64,000 nt of DNA. Source: a virus (Duplodnaviria > Heunggongvirae > Uroviricota > Caudoviricetes). Where the stretch lies: IMG/VR virus record IMGVR_UViG_3300037471_000830, one strand, 5' to 3'. The translations under genes were made by a program, and so were the position numbers. Below the pieces are notes generated by a model that saw nothing but the letters and a program-made list of their open reading frames with translations, searched no databases and had not been told where the DNA came from. Shown here piece after piece: positions 3,996 to 56,932 of this stretch (positions within the stretch are counted from its first letter, which is position 1; every line of letters starts with the position of its first letter).

Positions 3996-5006
3996 ATGAG
4001 CGAACCCACCGCAAAGGAAATTGACGACCTGATGGCGGAGCTCGAAGCCGAGCTTGACGGCCTGGACGACGGCCCCAAGCCGACCGAGCCGCAGCCCGCA
4101 CCCTCGGACGAGCACTCCGACCTCGACGTTGATCCGCCCGGTCAGGGCGCTGCCACGCCCGAACTCAAGCCCGCACCTGCCCCCGCGCCCGTGGCGGCCC
4201 GTAGCGAGCCCGTAGCGAGCCCGCCTGTGGTTGCAGCAGCACCCGCAGCAAGTGAGCCCGACGCTGACGAGCTGGCGGCCCTGGAGGCGGAACTGCGCGA
4301 GACCGAGCCCGCACCCGCTCCGGCCCCCAAGCCCACGCCGGCCGCACCGACGCTCGCCGAGAGCGCCAAGAAGCTCGCCGAAGCCCAGGTGACGGTGATC
4401 GAGGCAGTGAAGGCGGCCGACAAGCCAAAGCCCGCGCCGATCCACGACTCCGGCTTCAGCGAGGCGGAAATCGCCGACCCGGTGGGCGCACCCAAGAAAG
4501 CCGCGCTCAACTACTACGTGGACGTGGAAGCCTTCAAGCGCGAAACCGCCGTGTCCGATACGAACCTGGACGACTGCATGATCAAGCAGTCGGGCCTGCG
4601 GGCGTACTACGGCGCCCAGGCGGCTCACGCCGAAGCGCAGCATGCCCGCCTCAAGGTCCGCTTCGATGTGCTCGAAGCCAAGCTCTATGACACGCACCGC
4701 AAGCGCCTGGCCGAGACCGGCGAGAAGGTGACGGAGAAGGCGGTGGAGAACGCGGTCAAGCTCGATCCGCAGTGGCTCAAGGCCAAGAACGCGGTCATCG
4801 AGGCGGAGACCATCGCCAACGTCAACCGCAGCCTGGTGGTGTCGCTGTCCGACCGCAAGGACATGCTGGTCCAGCTCGGCGCGGATCGGCGTGAGGAGTT
4901 CAAGGGCCAACTGCGCATGGCGGGCGGCAGCGATGAAGTCGCTACCCGCAAGGCGGAATCCCTTGCAGCGAAGGCTCTGGCGGCGGCCCAGCGCGCGCAG
5001 GTTTGA
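3996..5006 (+). CDS. hypothetical protein, Ala/Pro/Glu-rich low-complexity N-terminus plus structured C-terminal domain
   Basis: ORF track; RBS GAAGGAG 8 nt upstream; follows polymerase gene. Confidence 0.6.
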   Translation: MSEPTAKEIDDLMAELEAELDGLDDGPKPTEPQPAPSDEHSDLDVDPPGQGAATPELKPAPAPAPVAARSEPVASPPVVAAAPAASEPDADELAALEAELRETEPAPAPAPKPTPAAPTLAESAKKLAEAQVTVIEAVKAADKPKPAPIHDSGFSEAEIADPVGAPKKAALNYYVDVEAFKRETAVSDTNLDDCMIKQSGLRAYYGAQAAHAEAQHARLKVRFDVLEAKLYDTHRKRLAETGEKVTEKAVENAVKLDPQWLKAKNAVIEAETIANVNRSLVVSLSDRKDMLVQLGADRREEFKGQLRMAGGSDEVATRKAESLAAKALAAAQRAQV

Positions 5007-49182: not shown

Positions 49183-50796
49183 TCAGGCCGCCTTCTTCAG
49201 GTCGGGGAAGCCTTCGGCGTCGTAATCGAAGTCCGCGCCGCCCAACAGGATGCCTTCGGCAAAGCCTGGGGTGTTGGACACGATCTCTCGGCGCTGCTTG
49301 GCGTGCTTCATCAGGTTCTCGTTGAAGCGGTCCTCGAAGTCCACGATGAAGCAGGTGTTCGGCCCCGCCTTCTTCGCCCGCAGGCCGCGACCGACACGCT
49401 GACGCAGCGCGACCTCGGCCTTGCCGCCACCGGCCAGGATCACCATCCCCACAGCCGGCACGTCCACACCCACATCCAGGATGGTCGTGCCAATGAGCAC
49501 GTCGAGCTTGCCGCTGCTCAGGGCTTGCAGCGCCCGCTTGCGCCCGACCTGATCGTCCTCACCCTGGATAAAGCTCGCCCGCAGACCCCGAGCCTCCAGC
49601 AGCTCCATCAGCCGCTCGCCGTGCTTCTTGTGCTGAACCAGCGCCATGACGGTGAGGCCACGGCCGACCGCGCGGTGAGCCTCGAAGGCAATCGCCTGGT
49701 TGCGCTCCTCGTTCTGCACGATGCCCAGCCGGTAAGCCGCCTGCCAGGCGGTGTTGCGCATCAGGTGCTCGGGCTTGGTGTGGAGCTGCACGAACTTGAA
49801 GATCGGGCGGGCCAGGATGCCGCGCTCGATGAGGGTCTGCTCCGAGACACGGATGGCGATCGGGCCGGAGGACGCCATCAGCCGCATGTTGGCTTCTTCG
49901 TCGCTGCGCATGAACGGCGTGGCGGTCAGCGCCAGCCGGTAGTGCGCGTTGATGCAGTGGCGCAGGATGTCGTAGTACGAGTTGCCGCCCGCCTCGTGGG
50001 CTTCCTCCAGGATCACGAACTCGAACTTGGACAGCAGGTTGATGGTCTGCTCGCGCAGCAGGGCTTGCTGACGCTGCTTTTCCGGCGTGTCCTTCGGGTC
50101 AGGCTCTGCCAGGCGAGCCACCAGGGTCTGCACCATGCCCACGGACATTTTCTTGATCGCGCTGCGCTCACGGCCATCGGCACCGACGATGGTGTGACCA
50201 AACTGGCCGTCGCCGAGCACGGACACCGACTGCTTCAAGTCCTTCTCGAACGTGTCCTTCATTTGGTACATGAGGACCGAGCGCGTGGTCAGGAACAGGG
50301 TGGGGCGGTTGATGCGGGCGAATGCCAGGCGGGCGATGCGTGATTTGCCGCCACCCGTGGCGACCTGGGCAATGATTTGGCCGTGCTTCACCAGCCGGCG
50401 CACAACTTCGGGCTGATAGTCGTAGCGCGGGTCTTCCGGGAACTCATCGACCACGGGATTCTCGGGACCAAGTGGCGCGGGCATGGGCTTTCTGACAAGC
50501 CGCACTTCGTAGCCATCGCGCTTCAGGTGCGCAGTGACGAAATGCACGAACCCGGCAGGGAAGGTGCCCTTTTTGAAATCGAGAAAACTGGATTTGCCAT
50601 CCCAGCGGCCGGTCTTAAACAGCATCGTGTTTTCGTGACCGGCCACGGTGTACGAAAGCGCGGTCTGGACCAGCAATTTGGCGTCGCGGTCGGGCTCGTG
50701 CAACTTGGCCGTGACGGCATTGGCAAGAATGGTGATCGTCTTCATTTTGGCTGTGGCTTGACCGCGCTCCATAAGGACATTATTATAAGTCATCAC
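49183..50796 (-). CDS. SF2 DEAD/DEAH-box DNA helicase (UvsW-like)
   Basis: motif I ATGGGKS, motif II ILEEAH, motif III LTATP, motif VI QRVGRGLR; alternative start at 50745 (MKTITIL). Confidence 0.8.
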   Translation of the reverse strand: MMTYNNVLMERGQATAKMKTITILANAVTAKLHEPDRDAKLLVQTALSYTVAGHENTMLFKTGRWDGKSSFLDFKKGTFPAGFVHFVTAHLKRDGYEVRLVRKPMPAPLGPENPVVDEFPEDPRYDYQPEVVRRLVKHGQIIAQVATGGGKSRIARLAFARINRPTLFLTTRSVLMYQMKDTFEKDLKQSVSVLGDGQFGHTIVGADGRERSAIKKMSVGMVQTLVARLAEPDPKDTPEKQRQQALLREQTINLLSKFEFVILEEAHEAGGNSYYDILRHCINAHYRLALTATPFMRSDEEANMRLMASSGPIAIRVSEQTLIERGILARPIFKFVQLHTKPEHLMRNTAWQAAYRLGIVQNEERNQAIAFEAHRAVGRGLTVMALVQHKKHGERLMELLEARGLRASFIQGEDDQVGRKRALQALSSGKLDVLIGTTILDVGVDVPAVGMVILAGGGKAEVALRQRVGRGLRAKKAGPNTCFIVDFEDRFNENLMKHAKQRREIVSNTPGFAEGILLGGADFDYDAEGFPDLKKAA

Positions 50797-53051: not shown

Positions 53052-53459
53052 ATGACTGCCAAAAAAGTTGCCGCCAAGACCGAGGCCGTTGCCGCTACGA
53101 CGCGCGGCCTCATTACCGACGAGCAGGTTTATGCCGCCATGCCGCGCGTCGTGAAGGTCGGCTGCTATGACTTCACCATCGAGGTCATGGACGAAATCGA
53201 GGGCAACGCCAGCGATGCCTTTGGCTACTGCTATCCCGGCAAGCAGACGATTCGTCTCCTGTCTGGACTCAAGCGCCAAAAGCTCGCCAACGTCTTCCTG
53301 CACGAAGTCCTGCACGGCATCCACTGGTTTCACGGCCTGGGTGACGAGAACAACGAGGAGGACTTCACCCTGCTGGGCGCCAACGGCATGTGCGCCTTCT
53401 TCCAGGACAACCCGGACGCCGCGGCCTGGTTCATGGCGGCCAACAAGGGGGCGCGATGA
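53052..53459 (+). CDS. small HExxH zinc metallopeptidase-like protein (SprT-like)
   Basis: FLHEVLHGIHW motif with upstream GY.YPG..IRL pattern reminiscent of SprT/WLM family. Confidence 0.45.
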   Translation: MTAKKVAAKTEAVAATTRGLITDEQVYAAMPRVVKVGCYDFTIEVMDEIEGNASDAFGYCYPGKQTIRLLSGLKRQKLANVFLHEVLHGIHWFHGLGDENNEEDFTLLGANGMCAFFQDNPDAAAWFMAANKGAR

Positions 53460-53587
53460 CCATCGCCTTTGCCCTGCCCGAGTGGCTGGTGTGGCTGCTG
53501 CTGGGCTGGAGCCTGGTCTGCGGCGTGGGCGTCCTGTGGTTCGGCTACCAGCTCTACCGGATGTTCTGGAAGGGGGACCGCGCGTGA
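53456..53587 (+). CDS. very small membrane protein (43 aa)
   Basis: ATG 53456 overlapping previous stop; single TM helix. Confidence 0.3.
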   Translation: MTIAFALPEWLVWLLLGWSLVCGVGVLWFGYQLYRMFWKGDRA

Positions 53588-54258
53588 CCACCTACGTCAT
53601 CAACAAGCGGTTCTCCACCCACGTCCAGCGCAGCGACCGCGTGCTGGAGATCGCCGAGGCGTTCGGGCTGGGCCTGGACGACAAGGAGTTCGTCGTTTAC
53701 GACAACCTGGCGCTGGAGGTTCGCCGAGGCGACGTGGTTTACATCACGGGCCAGAGCGGCAGCGGCAAGTCCACGATCCTGCGTGAGCTGATCGGCGCCA
53801 TGAAGGCCGAGGGCCTGCTGGTGGCCGACATCGACCGCGTGGAGCTGCGTGAAGTGCCGCTGATCGACCAGATCGGCGACACCACCCAGCGCGGCCTGGA
53901 ACTGCTGTCCATCGCCGGCATGAACGACGCCAACCTGTTCGTGCGCAAGCCCAGTGAGCTTTCGGACGGCCAGCGGTATCGCTTCCGGCTTGCCAAGGTC
54001 ATCGAGTCCGGCGCCCAGGTGTGGGCGGCCGACGAGTTCATGGCCGTGCTGGACCGCGACACCGCCAAGGTCATCGCCTACGCCATCCAGAAGTGCGCCC
54101 GAAAGATGGGCGCAACGCTCATGGTCGCCACCACGCACACCGACATGGTGGCCGACCTGGCGCCCTCCATCACCATCACCAAGAAGTACCGCGAGAAGGT
54201 CCACATCGAGAGCGTGTGGGTCAAGGAACACAACGAAGAAAGCAAGGAAGCGCAATGA
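53584..54258 (+). CDS. minimal ABC-type ATPase (nucleotide-binding domain only, 224 aa)
   Basis: Walker A GQSGSGKST, Q-loop, signature LSDGQRYR, Walker B VWAADEFMAVLD, H-loop ATTH; GTG start overlapping previous stop. Confidence 0.7.
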   Translation: MTTYVINKRFSTHVQRSDRVLEIAEAFGLGLDDKEFVVYDNLALEVRRGDVVYITGQSGSGKSTILRELIGAMKAEGLLVADIDRVELREVPLIDQIGDTTQRGLELLSIAGMNDANLFVRKPSELSDGQRYRFRLAKVIESGAQVWAADEFMAVLDRDTAKVIAYAIQKCARKMGATLMVATTHTDMVADLAPSITITKKYREKVHIESVWVKEHNEESKEAQ

Positions 54259-54716
54259 CGCACCGCTACATCGGAACGAAAGAAATCATGGCCTGGCCGA
54301 CCGAAAAAGACGGCAAGCCAGGCTACAGCGTCAAGTACGCAGATGGCTACATAAGCTGGAGTCCGGCTTCCGCGTTCGAGCCGGCCTACCGTCGCGCTGA
54401 AGGCGGAGACCAGCGCCTGACCTTTGGCGATGCGCTGCACTTCCTGAAGCTGGGGCGACGCGTCGCCCGCGCTGGCTGGAATGGCAAGGGCATGTGGTTG
54501 GCCTATACGCCTGGCAGCCATATCGGGCGCGAATGCGTCAAGCCCGGCCACGCATTGAGCCAGGTTGCGGTCGATCTGCCTGAGCGCGACCTGTTCCGCA
54601 TTGAAGCGCACATCGACATGCGGACCTCTGACGGCTCGCTGATGGTCGGCTGGACGCCAAACACACTGGACGTGCTGGCCGAGGACTGGATGGTCATCGC
54701 GGAGGGCGCGCAATGA
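54255..54716 (+). CDS. DUF2829-family protein (Thoeris anti-defense Tad2-like fold) with N-terminal extension
   Basis: FGDAL.FLK.GRRVARAGWNGKGMWL and HIDMRTSDGSLM.GW..N..D.LAEDWMVI resemble the DUF2829 signature. Confidence 0.55.
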   Translation: MTHRYIGTKEIMAWPTEKDGKPGYSVKYADGYISWSPASAFEPAYRRAEGGDQRLTFGDALHFLKLGRRVARAGWNGKGMWLAYTPGSHIGRECVKPGHALSQVAVDLPERDLFRIEAHIDMRTSDGSLMVGWTPNTLDVLAEDWMVIAEGAQ

Positions 54717-55048
54717 TCGAAGTCACCTCCACCCGCCAATTCACCGAGCAAGCCATCACGGCTTCGCACCATGCCGCTGTGGTCGTGCTGTTCGGTGCGC
54801 CCTGGTGCGGCCCGTGCAAGAGCTACAAGCCGCTGCTTGCGCGCCTTTGCGACGAGCGCGGGGTCAAGCTGTACTACGTCGATGCGGACGCGCTGCGCGA
54901 GCTTGCCGGGCTGTACGGCGTGCGCGCGGTGCCCACCACCGTCGTCCTCAAGGGCGGTGGCGAGCTGGGCCGGCAGTCGGGCGGCCTGGCCGAAGCCGCC
55001 GTGAAGCACCTGTTCGCCAAGCACGGCGTTCCGATGCTGGAGTTCTGA
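54713..55048 (+). CDS. thioredoxin
   Basis: active site WCGPC in VVLFGAPWCGPCKSY context. Confidence 0.85.
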   Translation: MIEVTSTRQFTEQAITASHHAAVVVLFGAPWCGPCKSYKPLLARLCDERGVKLYYVDADALRELAGLYGVRAVPTTVVLKGGGELGRQSGGLAEAAVKHLFAKHGVPMLEF

Positions 55049-55050
55049 GC

Positions 55051-55248
55051 GTGCCGACGATCATCGAACGCGGCGAACTGCCGGAAGCAAAGGTCCACGA
55101 GGCCCGCTGCACCCGCTGCAAGACGCTGTTCAGCTTCAAGACGGCCGAGGCGCGGGCGAGCAATGACCCGCGCGATGGCGCGCTGCTGGTGATCCGCTGC
55201 CCGCTGCCTGGCTGCAACAACGAGGTTTGGCACGATGCGCGCCGCTGA
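55051..55248 (+). CDS. small zinc-ribbon protein (CTRC...CPLPGC)
   Basis: GTG start 2 nt after trx stop; ORF 54805..55248 frame. Confidence 0.4.
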   Translation: MPTIIERGELPEAKVHEARCTRCKTLFSFKTAEARASNDPRDGALLVIRCPLPGCNNEVWHDARR

Positions 55249-56170
55249 AGTCCTGCTGGACAACGAGGAGCTGCGCGTCGAGCGCCGGGAGGTTCCCAAG
55301 GACCACCGGCTCTCGCTGCTGTCGCGCTGCTACATCGAGGCGGGCACCAAGGACGATTGGAACCTGCTGCACGAGCTCCACTACAAGGCGGAGCGGCTGG
55401 GCATCGGCCCGCGCTACTGGCGCTGCGTCATGGACGGGCAGACCATCGGCGTGGGCGTCATGACCGTGCCCAAGATGCTCCTGTCCGGGCGCAACAAGGC
55501 GTTCAAGCACCTGAAGCCCAACCAGGGTGGCGGGCGCGACACCAAGCTCATGAACCGCCACCGCGCCGTGTGGATGAACGAGGTCATCTGCACCAACTCG
55601 CGCCTGGTCCTGGACACCATGTATCGCGGCGCCGGCCTGGCGTACCGGATGCAGAACCTGATGATGCGCATGACGGGCTGCCAGAGCATCGAGTTCCAGT
55701 CCTCGATGTCCAAGTTCAACCCGTTTGCAGAACGGGCTGGCATGCGCTTCACCAAGCCGTCGCGCGCTCAACACTACGAGCGGGGCCTGAAATGGTTCCG
55801 CCGCTGGTTCGAGTGCAACCCGTCCGACTTCGTGGGCCTGATGGACGAGCTGCAAGCCATGCCGGAGCGAGCCAGAGACAAGTGCGTCGCCGAGATGCGC
55901 CATCTTTATTACGCATGCTCTGCCATGGAGAAGTCCGGCGACAACCGCATGAACGGCACTTCGCGGGTGGATGGCATGTCCGTGCCTTACCTGATCAAGT
56001 CCTTGCAGCAGTTGATCCTCGCCAGCCCGCTTTATGGCGTGTACCTCAACCCTGATTTCGGCCGCGAGCTGCCTGATCGCATTCCTGTGCTCGCCTTTGA
56101 TCTCCAGGCCGTCGATCAACCGCTGAACCTTGAGGGCGTAAATCGCCTGAGCGCCGAAATAAATCAGTGA
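55235..56170 (+). CDS. hypothetical protein with GNAT-like motif A (LDTMYRGAGLAYRM)
   Basis: ORF track; GNAT call is weak, single-motif based. Confidence 0.5.
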   Translation: MRAAEVLLDNEELRVERREVPKDHRLSLLSRCYIEAGTKDDWNLLHELHYKAERLGIGPRYWRCVMDGQTIGVGVMTVPKMLLSGRNKAFKHLKPNQGGGRDTKLMNRHRAVWMNEVICTNSRLVLDTMYRGAGLAYRMQNLMMRMTGCQSIEFQSSMSKFNPFAERAGMRFTKPSRAQHYERGLKWFRRWFECNPSDFVGLMDELQAMPERARDKCVAEMRHLYYACSAMEKSGDNRMNGTSRVDGMSVPYLIKSLQQLILASPLYGVYLNPDFGRELPDRIPVLAFDLQAVDQPLNLEGVNRLSAEINQ

Positions 56171-56863: not shown

Positions 56864-56932
56864 TGGCGCTCCTTTCAAAGTCATATCCCAGGGCGCCTTC
56901 TCCAGCGCCCATTTTTTTGCCCATTCGAGCCC

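Follow-up and report, generated by a model that had tools for sequence, protein, structure and literature searches.

A Tad2-like gene with an unannotated N-terminal module in a large GC-rich phage, a candidate immune-signal sponge

Gene architecture

We describe a gene at positions 54255..54716 (plus strand) of a 64,000-nucleotide stretch of viral DNA (IMG/VR record IMGVR_UViG_3300037471_000830, Caudoviricetes), hereafter the window. Its product of 153 amino acids (aa) consists of a short N-terminal domain, which we call the N-module, and a C-terminal domain of the Tad2 (DUF2829) family of immune-signal sponges. The features read in and directly ahead of the gene are as follows.

54244..54249, plus strand: Shine-Dalgarno-like AAGGAA, 5 nt 5′ of the ATG (read directly from the sequence)
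54255..54716, plus strand: complete coding sequence, 153 aa plus stop (open reading frame (ORF) read from the sequence)
54255..54398, plus strand: N-module, residues 1-48, YIGTK...GY.V.Y.DGY.SWSP..FE.AY (AlphaFold2 and phmmer)
54399..54413, plus strand: short linker, residues 49-53 (EGGDQ), joining the N-module helix to the first PDB-aligned residue
54414..54701, plus strand: Tad2-like domain (DUF2829, PF11195), residues 54-149 (Pfam, PDB phmmer and Foldseek)
54474..54491, plus strand: GWNGKG motif, residues 74-79 (alignment mapping to SPO1 Tad2 and HgmTad2)
54510..54608, plus strand: variable insertion, residues 86-118 (33 aa), between core strands 2 and 3 (alignment to HgmTad2 residues 32-72)
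54651..54671, plus strand: pocket loop and helix start, W133-T-P-N-T-L-D139 (column counts among 117 homologues)

The start of the coding sequence overlaps the stop of the preceding gene, and its stop overlaps the start of the next gene, in both cases through ATGA; the gene is translationally coupled to both neighbours. M1 and T2 are invariant among homologues, which supports the start. Moreover, gene calling on a separate public assembly independently gave the identical ORF, and the protein is identical to P0001 of a public collection, where it is present on five contigs.

Membership of the Tad2 family

The Pfam profile PF11195 ('Tad2-like') matches residues 56-148 (E = 2.6e-19, profile positions 2-73 of 73) with 69.9 bits, the curated gathering cut-off being 25 bits. 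A phmmer search against all PDB chains returned five distinct solved Tad2 proteins, aligned over query residues ~53-149 with E-values from 2.5e-14 to 2e-9. The matches include the following.

SptTad2 (PDB 8WJD): phmmer E = 2.5e-14
HgmTad2/AcrIIA7 (PDB 8KBI): phmmer E = 2.7e-13
ModTad2 (PDB 9EIB, 8V3E): phmmer E ~1e-12
SPO1 Tad2 (PDB 8SME, 8WJE): phmmer E ~2e-9

The full-length monomer was modelled with AlphaFold2 from 117 homologues, with a predicted local distance difference test (pLDDT) of 94.6 and a predicted template modelling score (pTM) of 0.84. In Foldseek, with this predicted rather than experimental structure as query, the C-terminal domain falls on every solved Tad2 chain (8WJD, 8KBI, 9EIB, 8V3E and 8SME) with probability 1.00 and a target-normalised template modelling score (TM-score) of 0.69-0.88, and no match other than Tad2 chains was found for the full-length model below E = 0.5. 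The first-pass annotation, made from the letters alone, had proposed a DUF2829 protein resembling Tad2 on the strength of motifs, and had named a HMMER search against PF11195 as a check. The motifs are all present (ARAGWNGKGMWL, residues 71-82; HIDMRTSDGS, 119-128; LAEDW, 141-145) and the proposal was borne out by the Pfam search, the PDB search and the model alike. Neither the protein nor ten N-module proteins match any NCBIfam family. The protein has no match among the PADLOC hidden Markov models (HMMs) either, which is expected, as these cover defence systems and not anti-defence.

Taken together, the Pfam HMM, the PDB search and the predicted fold support a clear assignment of residues 54-149 to the Tad2 family. 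In that capacity the gene is ordinary, a matter of routine annotation.

The ligand pocket

Published structures place a cyclic ADP-ribose signal, gcADPR, in a pocket formed in SPO1 Tad2 by W25, N26, W73 and D79 together with I63, T65, D67, H71, S76 and T78. In HgmTad2 it is formed by W21, N22, G23, M76, A78, T82, V84, W87, L88, S90, T92 and D93, and binding was lost in the W21A/N22A and S90A/T92A/D93A mutants. In our alignment W75, N76, G77, M122, W133 and D139 of the query are identical to the HgmTad2 pocket, T124, S128 and M130 are conservative changes, and T134, N136 and L138 stand where HgmTad2 has L88, S90 and T92. W75/N76/G77 correspond to the ligand-contacting W25/N26 of SPO1 Tad2 and W21/N22/G23 of HgmTad2, so that the GWNG motif does lie where the first-pass annotation had located a small-molecule pocket. 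Conservation of this core is high: W75, G77, W133 and D139 are invariant among the 117 subfamily homologues, and N76 is present in 116 of them.

The loop at residues 134-138 is a different matter. It reads TPNTL, as against a subfamily consensus of LASQT. Position 136 is Ser in 113 of 117 sequences (Asn in the query), position 137 is Gln in 103 (Thr in the query) and position 138 is Thr or Ser in 95 (Leu in the query), whilst N136, T137 and L138 each occur in only one or two sequences (N136 in two, L138 in one). Thus, the secondary Ser/Thr contacts of the pocket (S76/T78 in SPO1 Tad2, S90/T92 in HgmTad2) are missing. On alignment, the ligand clamp appears intact, while the loop that would read adenine and ribose is idiosyncratic. 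The ligand is not predictable, because loop 134-138 is without the Ser/Thr contacts of SPO1 Tad2 and HgmTad2. The loss of these residues bears on the choice of ligand and not on family membership.

The insertion at residues 86-118 corresponds to the region that forms a second, cyclic-dinucleotide pocket in HgmTad2 and SptTad2. The HgmTad2 contact residues are not conserved (R31 is replaced by T85, S47 by A100, F70 by I116 and N85 by V131) and the insertion is 33 aa as against 35-41 aa. We therefore rejected cyclic-dinucleotide binding through this pocket.

The N-terminal module

Both Pfam and PDB alignments start at residue 53-56, leaving ahead of them a domain of ~48 aa and a 5-aa linker. The first-pass annotation had seen an N-terminal extension of roughly 45 aa and had called it not typical of Tad2. 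The extension is real, at ~48 aa, and it does set the protein apart from the characterised Tad2 proteins; beyond these the description fails, as the extension is the norm in the subfamily PHROG 872. The profile phrog_872 matches residues 12-148 (E = 4.9e-35), which makes the extension part of a family. Of the 120 best database matches, almost all are 131-157 aa long and cover 97% of the query. In cultured phages, coverage of the query reaches 80% or more in 92 of the 316 records that match it, and the two-domain carriers include N4-like coliphages, Klebsiella phages, Vibrio phages and Ruegeria phage 45A6. These 92 records, the top ~115 database matches and N4 gp49 show that the layout of N-module plus Tad2 is the rule in a large subfamily (PHROG 872; N4 gp49-like).

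Moreover, the N-module is found well outside this subfamily. Searched exhaustively with phmmer, residues 1-53 on their own returned 824 representative clusters at 50% identity; this and a profile search were used in place of a word-indexed search, which found only 3 matches when the single 53-aa N-module sequence was the query. The best 149 matches comprise 32 proteins with N-module and Tad2, ~41 that are essentially the module alone and 76 with another partner. In a Pfam scan of 146 of the best matches the partners were Tad2-like (33), Sequestin (PF21825; 23) and Acb4 (PF13876; 17), and a fourth was one marginal match to EcoEI_R_C (E = 2.2e-4). In the longer proteins the sponge domain begins 8-10 residues after the N-module, and the architectures found were N-Sequestin, N-Acb4, N-Sequestin-Acb4 and X-N-Sequestin (N, N-module). 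Clostridium phage CP51 gp007, for example, is an N-module plus Acb4, and in Kosakonia phage Kc237 and Pseudomonas phage phi1 the N-module is followed by a helical tail that we assigned as Sequestin-like by eye from the sequence. In Xanthomonas phage Xoo-sp14 the N-module opens a 398-aa protein, gp45 (L005:2495-3691). This protein and four others (P0139, P0147, P0167 and P0169) are 223-398 aa long, with the N-module first and Sequestin next in most. Their large C-terminal regions are without a Pfam domain and may be further unrecognised anti-defence domains.

Stand-alone versions are abundant. A profile built from 14 stand-alone members retrieves 2106 proteins, the best 120 of which are nearly all 55-87 aa long (four are 98-116 aa) and contain no Pfam domain; the stand-alone N-module proteins themselves are 55-72 aa. 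In gut phages the stand-alone gene directly follows the endolysin gene, and no sponge gene is nearby. Six such loci (L009-L014, gene at 4001-4174) have a 56-57-aa stand-alone N-module right after a CHAP endolysin, followed by ~0.7-0.9 kb without called genes. A reverse transcriptase gene (RVT_1, possibly of a diversity-generating retroelement) lies ~2.6-2.7 kb upstream of the N-module gene (3.8 kb start to start). Other stand-alone genes lie in clusters of small ORFs, and one lies two genes from a Sequestin gene. The positions of these genes are of the accessory kind.

About 19 positions of the N-module show conservation of 90% or more in every setting (with Tad2, Acb4, Sequestin or no partner), and all are present in the query: Y5, G7, K9, A13, G20, G23, Y24, V26, Y28, D30, G31, Y32, S34, W35, S36, P37, F41, E42 and Y45. 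AlphaFold2 predicts a fold of three to four beta-strands plus a C-terminal helix, with a pLDDT of 92.7 for the module modelled alone and 94-98 inside the full-length model. The N-module is absent from Pfam and NCBIfam, as judged by scans of the query and of N-module proteins. A PDB sequence search with the module alone gave no match even at E ≤ 10, and a fold search of BFVD recovered only uncharacterised true homologues. The sponge families named in the searchable literature are Tad1, Tad2, Acb2, Acb4, Sequestin, Lockin, TadIV-1 and the RyR-like Tad, none of which matches the N-module. We also considered whether the module could have arisen by duplication of part of the ligand-binding C-terminal half of Tad2, with which it shares the pattern DG..W[ST]P...E.[WY], and rejected this (hhalign over 19 columns, P = 0.53, probability 0.1%). 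On these sequence comparisons, the N-module is an autonomous, widespread and unannotated mini-domain that stands ahead of three unrelated sponge families.

Comparison with known systems

A two-domain counterpart in a model phage is N4 gp49 (YP_950527, 160 aa, 'DUF2829 domain-containing protein' in RefSeq), which aligns with the query over the full length (33% identity, E = 1e-24) and shares the architecture of N-module plus Tad2-like domain. It adjoins the Acb4 homologue gp48 (L004:2106-2959; stop and start overlap) and the virion RNA polymerase, and this N4-like region has been described as an 'anti-signalling hotspot' containing 'Tad2'. In contrast to the query, gp49 has an insertion of ~25 aa in its N-module, a shorter insertion in its Tad2 domain and another genomic location. 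Moreover, its pocket loop, WVPSQSD, keeps a Ser that the query does not. No published test of N4 gp49 itself was found. The numbering in this region is confusing, in that the Pfam name of PF13876, 'N4 Gp49/Sf6 gene 66 family', refers to the protein that is gp48 of N4 in RefSeq.

Among the solved proteins, SptTad2 (8WJD) and HgmTad2/AcrIIA7 (8KBI-8KBM, 8WJC) are the best matches in sequence and fold, over residues 53-149 with a target-normalised TM-score of 0.71-0.77. GWNGKGM, W133 and D139 are identical between them and the query, and their insertion is likewise intermediate to long. However, both are single-domain proteins of 101-104 aa, as opposed to two domains and 153 aa in the query; their S90 and T92 are N136 and L138 in the query, and the residues of the cyclic-di-GMP/cyclic GMP-AMP pocket differ. 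SPO1 Tad2 (gp34.65; 8SME, 8SMF and 8SMG), the founding member, has the same fold, and the equivalents of its W25, N26, W73 and D79 are kept in the query. Its similarity is weaker (E = 2e-9), and it differs in being 89 aa long, without an N-module and with a 24-aa insertion, and in S76 and T78, which the query does not keep. ModTad2, from a Myroides odoratus prophage (8V3E, 9EIB), again has the same fold (target-normalised TM-score 0.81-0.88) and shares the W-T-P start of the pocket loop. It is a single-domain protein of 88 aa that binds histidine-ADP-ribose (His-ADPR) and cyclic UMP/cyclic CMP (cUMP/cCMP), and the rest of its loop is SVS whereas the query has NTL.

Sponge-sponge fusions are common, and Sequestin was discovered via its fusion to Tad2 and Acb4. 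Known examples are Acb4-Tad2 (Pasteurella phage Pm86), Tad2-Sequestin, Sequestin-Acb4 and Acb4-Sequestin (Pseudomonas phage Ab09). The query resembles these in that a small extra domain is joined to Tad2 in one polypeptide, and the N-module shares the very fusion partners through which Sequestin was found. The N-module would have escaped the Sequestin screen, because that screen used Pfam families and the N-module has no entry.

Genomic context

The window is GC-rich (~62%) and belongs to a large phage of virulent type, carrying genes for Pol III alpha, ribonucleotide reductase (RNR), RecA, gp32, ThyX, exonucleases, ParB-like proteins, terminase and portal. A Pfam scan of 60 other ORFs (window 1-52000) also found class I/II RNR, an SbcCD-like protein and a 5′-3′ exonuclease, together with one ORF with a BrnT ribonuclease-toxin domain (E = 8.6e-22) and one with an SPFH/Band 7 domain. 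Neither Sequestin nor Acb4 is among the 25 families listed of the 30 found in that scan. Megablast of the 10 kb around the gene against phages gave short matches only (terminase, portal) and no close cultured relative; the distant relatives are Pseudomonas phage ZY21 (Nickievirus) and the Rhizobium RHph phages. The 223,709-bp JGI contig on which P0001 lies is ~2x as long as the genomes of its nearest relatives in culture (112-117 kb), and may be a concatemeric assembly or come from a much larger phage.

The Tad2-like gene sits in a tight co-directional cluster, being preceded by two ParB-like genes, a gene for a protein with an HExxH motif and an ABC-ATPase-like gene, and followed by genes for a thioredoxin, a zinc-ribbon-like 65-aa ORF, a phrog_886 protein and a PadR-like protein. 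The features around it are as follows.

50758-50786, plus strand: sigma-70-like promoter match, 10 of 12, just 5′ of the first ParB-like gene (consensus match)
53052-53459, plus strand: 135-aa HExxH protein, phrog_1233, with a weak match to the DUF6782 metallopeptidase (E = 9e-4, below cut-off)
53456-53587, plus strand: 43-aa hydrophobic ORF resembling a single transmembrane helix, upstream of the ABC-ATPase-like gene
53584-54258, plus strand: ABC-ATPase-like, phrog_293, also matching the PADLOC mad3/mad8 ATPase models through the P-loop region
54713-55048, plus strand: thioredoxin (PF00085 E = 6.8e-17, with the active site WCGPC), its translation coupled to the stop codon of the Tad2-like gene; may be a processivity or redox factor
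55051-55248, plus strand: 65-aa ORF, zinc-ribbon-like by its CxxC...CPxxGC spacing, also called on the independent assembly
55235-56170, plus strand: 311-aa phrog_886 protein without a Pfam domain
56891-56910, plus strand: strong GC hairpin then a T-run, terminator-like, after the PadR-like gene (consensus match)

The promoter-like and terminator-like sites could delimit a transcription unit of ~6 kb that includes the Tad2-like gene. The cluster is syntenic in ZY21 and in RHph_Y2_11, and the phrog_293 and phrog_886 proteins are both kept beside the terminase in related phages. What lies between them, in the slot after the ABC-ATPase gene, varies. We compared window positions 53584-56170 with L002:4213-6051 (ZY21) and L003:3540-5826 (RHph_Y2_11), with the following slot contents.

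Query phage: two-domain Tad2-like gene, thioredoxin and 65-aa ORF
ZY21: unrelated 111-aa ORF
RHph_Y2_11: 100-aa single-domain DUF2829 protein (36% identical to the query Tad2 domain) and HAD-like gene

This pattern fits an accessory-gene insertion site beside the packaging genes, presumably with exchangeable cargo.

Interpretation

We think it likely, from the sequence comparisons and the model, that the gene encodes a phage counter-defence immune-signal sponge of the Tad2 family, and we do not commit to a ligand. By homology, residues 54-149 would fold as helix alpha1 plus an antiparallel sheet, and we infer a homotetramer with ligand pockets at the protomer interfaces. At these interfaces a nucleotide-derived immune signal would be held between W75/N76/G77 from one chain and W133/D139 from a second. 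The signal would most likely be a TIR-made derivative of ADP-ribose such as 3′-cyclic ADP-ribose (3′cADPR), His-ADPR or N7-cyclic ADP-ribose (N7-cADPR). The host effector would then never be activated and abortive infection would be prevented. The first 48 residues may add a second activity, most plausibly the binding of another small-molecule signal, as in the known sponge-sponge fusions; alternatively they may serve assembly or the binding of a host protein.

Several observations weigh against the sponge reading. N136 and L138 stand in place of the Ser/Thr pair, mutation of which along with the Asp markedly cut binding by HgmTad2; binding of gcADPR in particular is not assured, and the protein could bind 3′cADPR poorly or bind something else. 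Approximately a quarter of the sponge homologues assayed in the literature inhibited none of seven signalling systems. Moreover, the gene lies inside a conserved ParB/ABC-ATPase/terminase cluster and not in an obvious early anti-defence island. The first of these points leads to a possibility that refines the sponge reading without replacing it and that we hold only tentatively, namely that the protein is a working sponge re-tuned from 3′cADPR, the WTPNTLD loop directing it to His-ADPR (type II Thoeris), N7-cADPR (type IV) or another signal. Besides 3′cADPR, or in its place, Tad2 homologues are known to bind His-ADPR, N7-cADPR, cUMP/cCMP or cyclic dinucleotides. Five different target classes have been seen among the homologues assayed in the literature, and loop 134-138 of the query is unique among the 117 subfamily members. 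The loop opens W-T-P like that of ModTad2 (WTPSVSD), a sponge for His-ADPR that leaves type I Thoeris unblocked; HgmTad2 and SptTad2 have WLASQTD. This resemblance is perhaps a hint of the ligand, not a prediction: the likeness to ModTad2 is confined to W-T-P and the final D, and the domain overall is closest to SptTad2 and HgmTad2. The position of the gene raises the quite improbable alternative of a DUF2829 protein with a non-immune role, such as nucleotide or metabolite binding within the packaging module of ParB, ABC-ATPase and terminase. The gene is translationally coupled within a co-directional cluster that is bracketed by the promoter-like and terminator-like sites and conserved in ZY21 and the RHph phages, and RHph_Y2_11 has a DUF2829 gene in the same slot. 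However, ZY21 keeps the whole module without a DUF2829 gene and the slot also holds unrelated cargo (thioredoxin, HAD-like gene). A packaging role is argued against because the cargo varies between related phages, and all DUF2829 proteins characterised so far are immune-signal sponges. Most improbable is an anti-CRISPR of the AcrIIA7 type, as HgmTad2 was first reported and as some GenBank records label two-domain homologues ('anti-CRISPR protein'). This is already largely refuted: Li et al. examined HgmTad2 and other Tad2 homologues both in vitro and in vivo and could not reproduce inhibition of Cas9, and the label has been propagated by annotation pipelines.

For the N-module, we advance only tentatively the view that it represents an undescribed family of phage counter-defence domains, either a further immune-signal sponge or a module that extends specificity. 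As in the sponge definition of Tal et al., it is a short protein found fused to known sponge families. In favour of a ligand-binding role are the frequency of sponge-sponge fusions, the abundant stand-alone forms and the strong conservation of polar and aromatic residues. Its size of ~48 aa and the lack of marked positive charge count against a classical sponge; moreover, its position is N-terminal in almost all cases, and the model has it packed rigidly against the Tad2 domain (pTM 0.84). Features of this kind suit a structural accessory no less than a second sponge. It is equally conceivable, and in our view equally doubtful, that the module is an accessory only (an oligomerisation aid, a pocket lid or a solubility domain) with no ligand of its own. 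It nearly always stands immediately N-terminal to its partner with a linker of 8-10 aa, the full-length model is rigid through the linker (pLDDT about 96), and strand 3-6 forms only in that model and not in the isolated module. On the other hand, there are thousands of stand-alone versions of 55-72 aa, usually without a neighbouring sponge gene, and the same residues are conserved with Tad2, Acb4, Sequestin or no partner, although the partner folds are unrelated. A pure accessory role is less likely because the stand-alone genes are autonomous and conservation is the same ahead of three unrelated folds. We regard as unlikely a third role, in which a protein-binding domain of the chromo/Tudor/SH3-like kind docks the sponge onto a host protein or inhibits that protein directly, with a TIR or CD-NTase signal producer, an effector or RNA polymerase as candidate targets. 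The best, albeit weak, fold neighbours of the N-module are the RNA polymerase-interacting domain of Mfd, the N-domains of CarD/CdnL, and chromo and Tudor domains; the conserved Y24, Y28, Y32, W35 and Y45 resemble aromatic-cage binders, and Tad3-Tad8 have been reported to bind TIR domains or effectors.

In summary, what takes this gene beyond routine annotation is its outlier pocket loop and an N-module associated specifically with three sponge families, the latter a testable lead of moderate novelty. This large GC-rich phage probably must evade TIR/Thoeris-type signalling immunity of its host. The aberrant pocket loop makes the protein a candidate for capturing a signal other than 3′cADPR, and sponges have repeatedly been useful as tools for finding new immune messengers. 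The wider value may lie in the N-module, to which the same guilt-by-fusion logic applies as uncovered Sequestin, and which the model phage N4 already carries in gp49. If the N-module is a sponge or a specificity module, both the query protein and N4 gp49 would be bivalent inhibitors.

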